Source of the DNA: a bacterium
Lineage (GTDB): Bacteria; Hinthialibacterota; Hinthialibacteria; Hinthialibacterales; Hinthialibacteraceae
DNA: 64,000 nt
Direction: 5' to 3'
Assembly (NCBI GenBank): GCA_041946805.1
Contig: JBHGBC010000002.1
Span: forward strand, 82,354 to 146,353
The translations under genes and the position numbers were made by a program. This document shows, one piece after another, positions 4,299-62,317 of this stretch. Numbering within the stretch: position 1 is the stretch's first letter; each line of letters opens with the position of its first letter. The notes beneath the pieces are model-generated. The model worked only from the letters and a program-made list of their open reading frames with translations. It had not been told where the DNA came from and ran no database searches.

Positions 4299-4526
4299 GA
4301 ATCCCGCTTCCTTTCACGAGGTATGATACGTTCTTGGTTCCCTCCACCACCGGTCGGATTTGCCCAAAGGCCCAGCCAAGAACGGGTGAAGTATAAGGGC
4401 CGGGCGGGGATAAATCCACCCGGAGCGATGGCAGAGGAGGAATCACCACCCGGGTATGGAAAGTTGTCTGTATCTGAATGGCCGGCGAGAAGCGCGGAGA
4501 TTCCTAACGAATTCCTCCCCGAGGGG

Positions 4527-4550
4527 AATCCATGTGTATAGACATGGATT
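4527..4550. promoter_or_regulatory. Perfect 9-bp inverted repeat with 6-bp spacer (aatccatgt-gtatag-acatggatt) in a divergent promoter region
   Basis: Seen directly. Lies between the divergently transcribed nucleotidyltransferase operon (-) and the antitoxin-like/VapC pair (+). Candidate operator for a dimeric regulator (possibly the TA complex itself). Confidence 0.4.
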
Positions 4551-4741
4551 TTAACCTGCGGTAAAAAAAACCTTACCAGCAATGTGTTGATCATCCCACG
4601 ATTGATAAGACTGATTTGTAAATTAATTTTCTGTAAAAAATCACTTGACAATTCCTAGAACCGGATGGGGAAATAAAAAGGAGAGGAATTGAAATAGGGG
4701 TGCTGGATAGATTCAAAGCGGGTACGCCAAGGAGGTTCCTG

Positions 4742-5728
4742 ATGAGCAATAAACAACTCCCGCTCTTGATGATTGAATTGGAAGGGCCGGGTATCGGGCC
4801 GGGACGCATGACCGTGTCGCAACTACTCTGTTTGCTGGAAAACTTTGGCAAAGTACTGTTACGAACCGGCCAGGTTCTCGCCGGGGAGAGCCATAGCACC
4901 CGCAAAGGCCCCAAAACCAAGCGGCTCAAGGAATCGATTGACCTCCAACTCGTTCAACTGACACATGGCAGCCCTACGACCGTGCTTGGTTTCGATCGTG
5001 GAGTGCAGATCGATTTTCCAGAAATGGATGATGGTGAATATATTCTTGAAACCACGCTCCAAGGACTCACCGCAATTCAAAATCCGGATCATCCCTTACC
5101 TGCCGGTGTGGACCGGGGAGTTTTACTCGCTTGGCGAGAGTTAGGCCTCCTCTTTCGCAAAAGATGCAATCGAATTTTATTTTCTCTAAATAACCGCGCA
5201 ATTCCGTTACGGATTAAATATACCCCCGCGGGATTCGAACAGATTCAGAAGCGTATTCGAGGTCCCGAACTCAACCTTCGTACAGTCGAGGGCAGGCTTT
5301 TGATGACGGATTTCAAAGAATACGGCACCCGTTGCCGGATTCACCCTCCGATCGGCGATCCCATTATTTGCCTGTTTGATGAAGACCAGAAAGAGGCCGT
5401 TTTGGAAAATATTCTCCAATATGTGCGGATCGAGGGAGAAGCCCAAGAAGACTCGATTTCCAGAAAAATTACAAATATAAAGATCCGCGATATTGAAAGA
5501 ATAGAGGATATGGAGGTCGATGAGAAAAACATCCCAACGGGTGAACCCTTACCGTTCGATTTCTGGAAATCCTGGACGATCGAAGAACTCGCGGAAGCGC
5601 AAGGAGTCATTCCCGTTACGGATGTGACAGCCCTTTTGGGAACATGGCCCGGGGAAGTGGACGATGGTTTTGAGGAATTTATCCAAGACTTGAGGCGGCA
5701 AAATTCGATTGGAGAAAATAACCCGTAA
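4742..5728 (+). CDS. Hypothetical 328-aa protein with a C-terminal antitoxin-like tail (DUF2281/VapB-like motif …LLGTWPGEVDDGFEEFIQDLRR) and a large N-terminal domain of unknown function
   Basis: ATG at 4742 is preceded by a strong SD (aaggagg, 7 nt spacer). The ORF track's 4700 start is GTG without SD. The stop overlaps the VapC start (TAATG at 5725-5730). The C-terminal ~40 aa resemble the toxin-binding tails of small antitoxins partnered with PIN toxins. The N-terminal ~280 aa have no similarity I can recognise. Lies in a low-GC islet. Confidence 0.65.
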   Translation: MSNKQLPLLMIELEGPGIGPGRMTVSQLLCLLENFGKVLLRTGQVLAGESHSTRKGPKTKRLKESIDLQLVQLTHGSPTTVLGFDRGVQIDFPEMDDGEYILETTLQGLTAIQNPDHPLPAGVDRGVLLAWRELGLLFRKRCNRILFSLNNRAIPLRIKYTPAGFEQIQKRIRGPELNLRTVEGRLLMTDFKEYGTRCRIHPPIGDPIICLFDEDQKEAVLENILQYVRIEGEAQEDSISRKITNIKIRDIERIEDMEVDEKNIPTGEPLPFDFWKSWTIEELAEAQGVIPVTDVTALLGTWPGEVDDGFEEFIQDLRRQNSIGENNP

Positions 5729-6128
5729 TGGTAGCGAAACTCATCTTGGATACCAACATTGTATCGTACCTCATGAAGAGGCACTCTTTCGGTCAAAAAT
5801 ATTTGCCACACCTCTTGGGTAAGCTTTTGGCGATCAGCTTCATCACGGTGGGGGAACTTTATGTCGGGGCGGAAAAAGACAAATGGGGAGAAAGAAAGCG
5901 CCTTCATCTCCAGCCATGCTCAAAAACTATGTGGTGATTCCTTATGATGATGGCATCGCGAAGGAGTTTGCGCGAATTTTTGTCAATCGGATGCGGTTGG
6001 GTAAGCCCATTTCATTTTCAGACGCCTGGATATCGGCCTGTGCTGTACGGCATGATGTACCTTTGGTTACACACAATGCGATACACTTTGAGTCCATACC
6101 AGGATTACGGATTATTACTGAGCCATAA
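5728..6128 (+). pseudogene. vapC: VapC-type PIN-domain toxin, split by a +1/-1 frameshift near 5910-5920 (frames 5728..5937 and 5883..6128)
   Basis: N-terminal part MVAKLILDTNIVSYLMKR…ITVGELYVGAEKDKWGERKRLHLQP, with the conserved first acidic residue (LDTN). C-terminal part in another frame: MLKNYVVIPYDDGIAKEFARIFVNRMRLGKPISFSDAWISACAVRHDVPLVTHNAIHFESIPGLRI, the canonical PIN VLPFD / D-x-x-IAA / LVT-N motifs. The shift falls in an a/g-rich stretch (ggaaaaagacaaatggggagaaagaaagcgcc). Either a real pseudogene or a sequencing indel. Confidence 0.65.
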
Positions 6129-6260
6129 AGCTCAAGCTCATGAACTGTTCACTTGAATGAAGTCCATAACGCTACTGAAAGAAATATGGCATTGAAAATC
6201 GGACTATCTAAATTTCCTACCTCTTTTTAGCCCGATTATCGAATTGCATTTAAGAAAATT

Positions 6261-19458: not shown

Positions 19459-19491
19459 CCCTCTCCCTCTGGGAGAGGGCTAGGGTGAGGG
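19459..19491. repeat. REP-like element, copy B (ccctctccctctgggagagggctagggtgaggg)
   Basis: Exact reverse complement of copy C at 36168..36200. Confidence 0.75.
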
Positions 19492-36167: not shown

Positions 36168-36200
36168 CCCTCACCCTAGCCCTCTCCCAGAGGGAGAGGG
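36168..36200. repeat. REP-like element, copy C (reverse orientation; ccctcaccctagccctctcccagagggagaggg)
   Basis: Exact reverse complement of copy B (19459..19491). Flanked by gaattc/gaatt on both copies. Confidence 0.75.
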
Positions 36201-62287: not shown

Positions 62288-62317
62288 CACCCTGGCCCTC
62301 TCCCAGAGGGCCAGGGG
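62288..62317. repeat. REP-like element, copy D (caccctggccctctcccagagggccagggg), a near-perfect 12-bp palindrome
   Basis: ccctggccctct-ccc-agagggccaggg. Intergenic between the mraZ upstream region and the aminotransferase gene. Confidence 0.65.

Follow-up and report, generated by a model that had tools for sequence, protein, structure and literature searches.

A likely type II toxin-antitoxin-like operon in which a VapC-type PIN toxin is paired with a large, unannotated scaffold protein carrying an OB fold

INTRODUCTION

Classical type II antitoxins are built from a DNA-binding N-terminal domain and a toxin-neutralizing tail, and a hyperpromiscuous antitoxin domain, Panacea (PanA, SocA_Panacea/DUF4065), has been described (PMC10440598). 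Toxin-antitoxin (TA) modules with a PIN toxin that are linked to restriction-modification (RM) operons have been described as mutually stabilizing (PMC5499597), and genes embedded in immune operons have proved to be defense systems (bioRxiv 10.1101/2024.01.29.577857). Here we describe a two-gene module located in a stretch of 64,000 nucleotides from a bacterium of the Hinthialibacterota (GenBank assembly GCA_041946805.1, contig JBHGBC010000002.1, positions 82,354 to 146,353). This whole stretch is called the window, and all coordinates given for it are counted from its first letter. The module consists of a gene for a 328-aa antitoxin-like protein, which we call the scaffold, followed by a gene for a VapC-type PIN toxin.

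A previous interpretation of this DNA, the sequence-only reading, had proposed that the VapC PIN gene is coupled to the gene for an antitoxin-like protein of unusual size, which would bind the toxin through its C-terminal tail. This central idea is supported by the homology of the tail and by the conserved pairing of the two genes. We consider it likely that the locus is a type II TA-like operon of a widespread but unannotated kind, of which the copy in the window is slightly decayed, with the toxin lost and the scaffold intact. The scaffold protein is not described in the two papers on PIN modules at RM operons and on embedded immune genes cited above, and the literature searched for antitoxins with an OB fold or for VapB proteins of large size gave no description of it either.

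RESULTS

The scaffold gene and the PIN gene form a conserved pair

The two-gene module is present at the expected coordinates in the window, and the stop codon of the 4742..5728 open reading frame overlaps the start codon of the PIN gene (TAATG, 5726-5730), as had been noticed from the sequence alone. We surveyed 80 genome loci from many phyla that contain the scaffold gene for this pairing and for their neighborhood. Based on tblastn with the repaired PIN protein of the window, a PIN gene lies directly downstream of the scaffold gene wherever the contig allows, with the exception of one locus (L047), so that the pairing is kept in essentially all loci with enough sequence. The PIN gene is intact in 63 loci, and the two genes overlap by ATGA in 43 and by 1 nt in 6. 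At about 11 loci (approximately 15%), the PIN gene is frameshifted, truncated, or missing beside an intact scaffold gene. A few scaffold genes are broken and not merely cut by a contig end. In L047 and L056, the PIN gene is missing or truncated as well, and in L077, a contig end makes the PIN gene not assessable. A broken scaffold gene beside an intact PIN gene was not seen among the 80 loci. Such one-sided decay, in which the PIN gene is lost and the scaffold kept, is expected if the PIN protein is toxic and the scaffold is protective, and the window appears to be a further example of decay that begins with the toxin.

The scaffold itself is a widespread protein. Neither the complete 328-aa sequence nor pieces of it matched any entry in Pfam, NCBIfam, PADLOC, or PHROG; a 12-bit match to Lnu(G) was taken as chance. 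A word-indexed search yielded 263 homologues, nearly all 326 to 331 aa in length, 50 to 57% identical, and annotated as hypothetical. An exhaustive hidden Markov model search of 1.84 billion cluster representatives (clusters at 50% identity) returned 973 clusters at an E value of ≤1e-3 and 526 at ≤1e-10. The phyla represented by the genome hits include Planctomycetota, Hydrogenedentota, Desulfobacterota, Nitrospirota, Acidobacteriota, Gemmatimonadota, Spirochaetota, Verrucomicrobiota, Proteobacteria, and Cyanobacteria (Thermosynechococcus), among others. When the PDB sequences were searched with profiles of the family and of the tail, only chance matches were returned. Two contigs from a related organism (L093 and L094), which are 86% identical to the window at the DNA level, served for close comparison. 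The ratio of nonsynonymous to synonymous divergence (dN/dS) of the scaffold gene against L093 is 0.17, indicating purifying selection. Decay of the scaffold after loss of the toxin was not seen, as the window protein deviates at 11 conserved columns and a relative with an intact PIN gene at 12.

The C-terminal tail is shared with small proteins encoded upstream of PIN genes

Residues ~257 to 328 of the scaffold were modeled by AlphaFold2 (AF2) with low confidence and as short helices, as is expected of a segment that folds upon binding to a partner. With a tail profile built from 34 diverse tails (A2), we found 1,104 proteins of 58 to 105 aa, with E values down to 1e-21, all of them unannotated. 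These small proteins carry the C-terminal motif ELAxxQGVxPv...LlGDFWPEDEsxDeFI..VRqWRRE behind varied N termini. A PIN gene lies directly downstream in four of the seven small proteins that were looked up (P0309, P0285, P0315, and P0341); it overlaps the stop codon in three and is separated by 9 nt in the case of P0285. The PIN proteins of these four loci are 36 to 44% identical to the repaired PIN protein of the window over the full length. The window tail shares 45% identity over 53 residues with the C terminus of P0285, a 94-aa protein upstream of its PIN gene, and 38% identity with P0315. The remaining three loci (L081, L089, and L091, encoding P0279, P0336, and P0325, respectively) have no PIN gene downstream. 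Their neighbors are a MazE-like gene together with a gene for a 187-aa unknown protein, a gene for a 216-aa unknown protein, or nothing nearby, and these small proteins may be orphan antitoxins or have other partners.

The tail had been likened to those of VapB/DUF2281-type antitoxins. The likeness to small antitoxins holds in that the tail is homologous to the C termini of more than 1,100 small proteins, of which four of the seven sampled stand upstream of a PIN gene, but the tail is not a member of the Pfam VapB or DUF2281 families. The window tail does not match Pfam VAPB_antitox (PF02697). The family consensus tail reaches 16.9 bits (E value, 0.011; profile positions 26 to 67 of 69) against this model, below its gathering threshold of 27.9 bits. 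By these homologies, the tail belongs to an unannotated family of small PIN-partner tails.

The toxin gene is a recent pseudogene

The PIN gene extends across two reading frames (5728..5937 and 5883..6128), which when joined encode a PIN protein of 133 aa. The repaired protein matches Pfam PIN with an E value of 1e-14 (55.6 bits; cutoff, 23.6) and the NCBIfam models for tRNA(fMet)-specific VapC with E values of 1.5e-20 and 2.9e-12. Its nearest solved relatives are the tRNA(fMet)-specific VapC proteins of Shigella and Salmonella (3TND and 6IFC). On these matches, the toxin can be assigned to the VapC PIN RNases, in the clade with solved structures of enzymes that cleave initiator tRNA.

The sequence-only reading had recognized a single-nucleotide frameshift in the PIN gene and had left the choice between decay and an assembly indel. 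Alignment to the syntenic contigs L093 and L094 places a deletion of a single A between 5911 and 5912, which changes CTCCAAGCC to CTCCAGCC. Both contigs encode an intact 133-aa PIN protein and share the gene order NTP_transferase, module, BNR gene with the window. An independent Logan assembly (L092, run SRR29307520) is identical to the window here and carries the same deletion. An assembly artifact is unlikely, as the deletion occurs in this second assembly and does not lie in a long homopolymer. Decay is thus favored: because the deletion is also found in L092 and the PIN gene is intact in L093 and L094, the toxin gene has genuinely and recently been inactivated in the lineage of the window.

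Beyond the frameshift, the PIN gene shows little decay. The residues D8, E43, and D99 are conserved. The fourth acidic position of the active site (E119 in Shigella) is a histidine in the window (codon 120, 6085-6087) and also in L093 and L011; among the 63 family PIN proteins, this position is histidine in 10 and aspartate in 52. The histidine, which is older than the frameshift, possibly marks an attenuated variant or one with altered metal use. Between the window and L093, the synonymous divergence (dS) of the PIN gene is 0.11, about one-third of that of the adjacent scaffold gene (0.31); recombination or codon constraint is possible.

The N-terminal part consists of a new domain and an OB fold

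Residues 1 to 175 of the scaffold form a confidently modeled domain (AF2 on a 24-sequence alignment; predicted local distance difference test score of 77 for the 328-aa monomer). For this N-domain, no fold match was found in the PDB. Residues ~177 to 253 form an OB fold, a closed barrel of five beta-strands that has a helix between the third and fourth strands, which resembles tRNA anticodon-binding and single-stranded DNA-binding domains. Several basic and aromatic residues of the barrel are conserved (R185, K192, R197, R199, H201, F191, and F212), which is only suggestive of single-strand binding. The ~280 N-terminal residues had been said to have no recognizable homology. This is correct for the sequence libraries, and residues 1 to 175 have no match by either library or PDB fold search, but the region does contain a recognizable OB fold next to a domain that models well. 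No ribbon-helix-helix (RHH), AbrB/SpoVT, helix-turn-helix (HTH), or Phd/YefM DNA-binding domain was found in the scaffold with Pfam or NCBIfam, and its structure is that of the new domain followed by the OB fold.

The scaffold is combined with other tails and other toxins

Distant members of the family keep the N-domain and the OB fold and differ in their tails. In P0391 (from "Ca. Promineifilum breve") and P0406, the tail matches the last 31 positions (49 to 79 of 79) of the NCBIfam RelN antitoxin model with an E value of 8e-6; for P0391, the match scores 26 bits against a cutoff of 70. An overlapping gene downstream of P0391 and P0406 encodes a RelE/ParE toxin of 116 to 117 aa (Pfam RelE, 29.8 bits; cutoff, 27). 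P0223 is followed by a PemK/MazF toxin. One scaffold is combined with at least three tail types and with toxins of three superfamilies, and on these homologies it can be regarded as a promiscuous antitoxin module. Directly upstream of the RelE-type module of "Ca. Promineifilum breve" (L095 1373-2730; LN890655.2) are genes for a 239-aa and a 107-aa protein without a Pfam match, followed by a PemK/MazF toxin gene. These three genes may represent another unconventional TA arrangement.

The module is often embedded in restriction-modification clusters

Only the two genes are conserved across the loci, and the neighbors vary. In 29 of the 80 loci, RM-type genes are located within 4 kb. According to Pfam and PADLOC, these neighbors are type I methylase and specificity subunits, type III Mod and Res, and the DISARM SNF2 helicase DrmD. 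In one locus (L028), the pair is flanked by type III Mod on one side and Res on the other, and a version with a RelE toxin (L098) lies between HsdM-HsdS and a second methylase. In three others (L029, L050, and L055), the module is found between a DrmD-type SNF2 helicase (PADLOC DrmD, 6e-206) and a type III-like methylase with a ResIII helicase.

The G+C content of the module is about 0.53, while that of the host flanks ranges from 0.39 to 0.66. Such independence from the host is typical of horizontally moving DNA. In the window, the sequence-only reading had pointed to a low-G+C islet beside extracellular polysaccharide (EPS) genes that was horizontally acquired. The islet is there (0.44 to 0.50 against 0.61 to 0.66 in the flanks), and the constant composition of the module fits its mobility, but the acquisition was not recent. 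A recent insertion at this site is ruled out by the same synteny in the relative at a dS of ~0.3. Upstream of the module are Bac_transf, Polysacc_synt, and NTP_transferase genes of the EPS cluster, and downstream is a BNR/sialidase-like gene, as annotated on the identical Logan contig (L092).

Start codon, upstream region, and inverted repeats

The features of the locus are listed in Table 1. The start of the scaffold gene at ATG 4742 is backed by homologues that begin at the same methionine and by the AGGAGG at 4730. Starting at an in-frame GTG (4700) would lengthen the protein by 14 residues, and the homologues do not back this longer start. The public gene call (P0001) differs in that it begins at Met10 and gives a protein of 319 aa.

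TABLE 1 Features of the module and its surroundings in the window
Feature	Position	Strand	Remarks
Low-G+C islet	4450..6250		G+C content of 0.44-0.50 versus 0.61-0.66 in both flanks; carries the two-gene module
Perfect 9-bp inverted repeat	4527..4550		AATCCATGT-N6-ACATGGATT; 215 nt upstream of ATG; probably fortuitous
Candidate promoter region	4630..4700	+	4 differences in ~71 columns versus L093/L094; TTGACA at 4645-4650
Shine-Dalgarno AGGAGG	4730..4735	+	6 nt ahead of ATG 4742
Scaffold antitoxin-like gene	4742..5728	+	ATG 4742, TAA 5726-5728; 328 aa; intact
N-terminal domain, residues 1-175, alpha/beta	4742..5266	+	No known fold relative
OB-fold domain, residues ~177-253	5270..5500	+	Most conserved motif, EGRLLMxDFKExGTRCRxHP
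C-terminal tail, residues ~272-328	5555..5725	+	FW..s.eELAeaQGV.Pv.d...L.GtWPGE.DDGFEE.I..LR.; putative PIN-binding, toxin-neutralizing segment
VapC-type PIN toxin pseudogene	5728..6128	+	133 aa when repaired; ATG overlaps scaffold stop
1-nt (A) deletion site, frameshifting the PIN gene	5911..5912	+	Alignment with intact L093/L094

It had been suggested that the inverted repeat at 4527..4550 could act as an autoregulatory operator. The repeat is perfect in the window, but an operator role is not supported, as the repeat is degraded in L093 and L094 (3 mismatches), has no counterpart in the other loci, and is ordinary against the background. Inverted repeats of 9 bp of this quality occur ~13 times in the 64-kb window, compared with ~4.5 times in composition-matched shuffles, and a single one in a 440-nt spacer is therefore unremarkable. 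Only 14 of 66 homologous loci have a perfect inverted repeat of ≥8 bp upstream, none of them alike in sequence or position. The k-mers shared by the upstream regions of 70 loci are those of the Shine-Dalgarno sequence (AGGAGG type), and no common operator motif beyond these ribosome-binding sites was found. The block at 4630-4700 is far better conserved with respect to L093 and L094 than the inverted repeat. A consensus scan of the islet for promoters and terminators gave counts at the level of shuffled sequence and did not call the TTGACA region in this block. That the conserved scaffold is an operator-specific repressor is unlikely. Elsewhere in the window, an inverted repeat resembling repetitive extragenic palindromes, CCCTCTCCC-N3-GGGAGAGGG, recurs at 19459-19479, 36180-36200, and 62290-62316, and the copy at 62290 is extended to CCCTGGCCCTCTCCC...GGGAGAGGGCCAGGG.

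DISCUSSION

The conserved pairing, the tail homology, and the one-sided loss of the PIN gene are consistent with a scaffold that protects the cell from a VapC toxin. In the mechanism we propose, the scaffold and PIN genes would be translationally coupled, and the tail, placed after a flexible linker, would wrap around the PIN protein and block its active site. Physical neutralization of the PIN protein by the tail is likely, as judged from the sequence relationships. The role of the N-domain and the OB fold can be given only tentatively. They would not bind an operator but would act as a regulatory or sensor module that decides on the release of the toxin, most likely by binding single-stranded nucleic acid or a factor of the invader; we put the chance of such a sensor or regulatory role slightly below even. 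With other tails, the same scaffold would serve RelE/ParE and MazF/PemK toxins. Because the module is often found inside type I and III RM and DrmD clusters, its role may be in abortive-infection defense or in the stabilization of defense islands, and for a defense function we are equally reserved, finding it conceivable and not quite an even bet. In the most far-reaching form of this proposal, the scaffold is a new promiscuous sensor-antitoxin whose OB fold binds single-stranded nucleic acid or a protein of the invader and thereby releases the toxin, and the modules in type I and III RM and DrmD clusters form a new abortive-infection family. We regard this form as speculative and rather doubtful. 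If correct, the scaffold would have its conceptual parallel in Panacea or in the domain with which CapRel senses.

Several observations weigh against this interpretation. Three of the seven small proteins with the tail motif have no PIN gene downstream. The histidine at the fourth acidic position in the window lineage makes the activity of the PIN protein uncertain even before the frameshift. OB folds are also found in many roles other than sensing. As to defense, the module in the window is not beside defense genes, neither of its two proteins matches any PADLOC model (PADLOC-DB 2.0, zero families), and tblastn against phage and plasmid collections gave no match to the module and hence no sign of a mobile-element origin.

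The most plausible of the alternatives, although in our view an unlikely one, is a purely selfish addiction module. Post-segregational killing would stabilize the host DNA, such as RM operons and islets, and the N-terminal part would have no sensing role but perhaps tune antitoxin stability or oligomerization. Much of what we observed would fit this explanation: the patchy distribution across phyla at 50 to 57% identity, a module G+C content that is independent of that of the host, the repeated decay of the toxin with retention of the antitoxin, and the mutual stabilization that was described for PIN modules linked to RM operons (PMC5499597). What it does not explain is the scaffold. A two-domain scaffold of 256 residues with a fixed length and a dN/dS of 0.17, reused with three unrelated toxins, would be costly without a specific function, and small antitoxins of 58 to 105 aa with the same tail suffice for the same PIN proteins. 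In addition, the module was not found on the plasmids or phages searched.

A more conventional possibility is that the locus is an ordinary autoregulated VapBC operon, with the 256 N-terminal residues as an unusual DNA-binding autorepressor and the inverted repeat at 4527-4550 as its operator. This agrees with the classical antitoxin plan (PMC10440598), with the perfect repeat upstream, and with a scaffold rich in conserved basic residues. We nevertheless consider it improbable, given that the repeat is interrupted by 3 mismatches in L093 and L094, where ~70 nt nearby are far better conserved, and that only 14 of 66 loci have a perfect inverted repeat of ≥8 bp upstream, with none alike. A scaffold that is 50 to 57% identical across phyla should keep a recognizable operator, and yet the k-mers common to the 70 upstream regions are only ribosome-binding sites. 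Many copies start 10 to 30 nt after an RM gene, which leaves no room for a promoter of their own, and OB folds typically bind single strands. The last and least plausible alternative is a two-subunit RNA-processing nuclease in which the OB-fold protein recruits RNA or tRNA and the tail tethers PIN as the catalytic subunit. In Dis3/Rrp44, for example, PIN domains do team up with OB, S1, or CSD domains; the OB fold of the scaffold is similar to domains that bind tRNA anticodons or single-stranded DNA, and tRNA is the target of this PIN clade. Such an enzyme is nevertheless very improbable here. The tail is also found on small proteins that lack an RNA-binding domain and are encoded in the place of an antitoxin, and the scaffold has further partners in RelE/ParE and MazF toxins, for which a recruiting subunit is unnecessary. 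A catalytic subunit that is lost in ~15% of the loci with its partner intact, and a sporadic distribution embedded in RM operons, are both unlike a housekeeping enzyme. We would classify the module as a variant of the type II TA systems with a modular large antitoxin, not as a new category, and as possibly linked to defense.

With its toxin dead, the copy in the window is a remnant of reduced local biological importance, but it reveals a large unnamed family: about 1,000 clusters at 50% identity of a conserved protein of ~330 aa that has no name in Pfam, NCBIfam, PADLOC, or PHROG. A second unnamed family, which comprises the tails of more than 1,100 small PIN-partner antitoxins, is defined along with it, and both can be converted straight away into profile models for annotation. 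Textbook antitoxins consist of a small DNA-binding domain and a tail, and the upstream partner of VapC, RelE/ParE, and MazF toxins departs from this plan with its new domain, OB fold, and exchangeable tail. Its position in RM operons makes it a concrete candidate for how TA modules sense infection or guard defense islands, and as the putative sensor and inhibitor parts are cleanly separable, the system is experimentally tractable.

Among the known systems close to the module are the VapBC systems, especially those of the tRNA(fMet) clade (Shigella MvpT and the VapC proteins of Salmonella and Leptospira). The locus shares with them a PIN toxin of ~133 aa with D8, E43, and D99, a gene in the antitoxin position upstream with overlapping stop and start codons, and an upstream protein that ends in a segment homologous to the tails found in small partners of PIN toxins. 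It differs in the size of this partner (328 aa instead of ~70 to 90), which has the new 175-residue domain and the OB fold in place of an RHH, AbrB, HTH, or Phd domain; no conserved operator was found, and no match to a Pfam VapB model reaches the threshold. RelNE (NCBIfam NF050107 RelN with RelE) is similar in that P0391 has a RelN-type tail and overlaps a RelE/ParE gene, but this likeness holds only for the tail of distant relatives and not for the window protein. Compared with OB-type single-strand-binding proteins (SSB, RPA, PriB, and the anticodon-binding N-domains of aminoacyl-tRNA synthetases), the OB fold of the window protein is 5 to 18% identical and matches none of these families, and it sits between a new domain and an antitoxin tail. 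HEC-03 (one of the PADLOC "HEC" candidates, an ABC-ATPase with a VapC-like PIN; bioRxiv 10.1101/2024.01.29.577857) likewise has a PIN effector with a large non-VapB partner and is nested in multigene immune systems (RM, Hma, or BREX operons). The scaffold partner is not an ATPase and has no PADLOC match. With Panacea, the analogy is purely functional: one conserved and fairly large scaffold occurs with unrelated toxins (here PIN, RelE/ParE, and MazF/PemK), in modules located among defense genes. No SocA_Panacea/DUF4065 or other Pfam match was obtained for the window protein, P0391, or P0223, and the scaffold is a new domain with an OB fold. In contrast to Panacea, the specificity for the toxin appears to sit in exchangeable C-terminal tails, VapB-like or RelN-like, that are borrowed from small canonical antitoxins.

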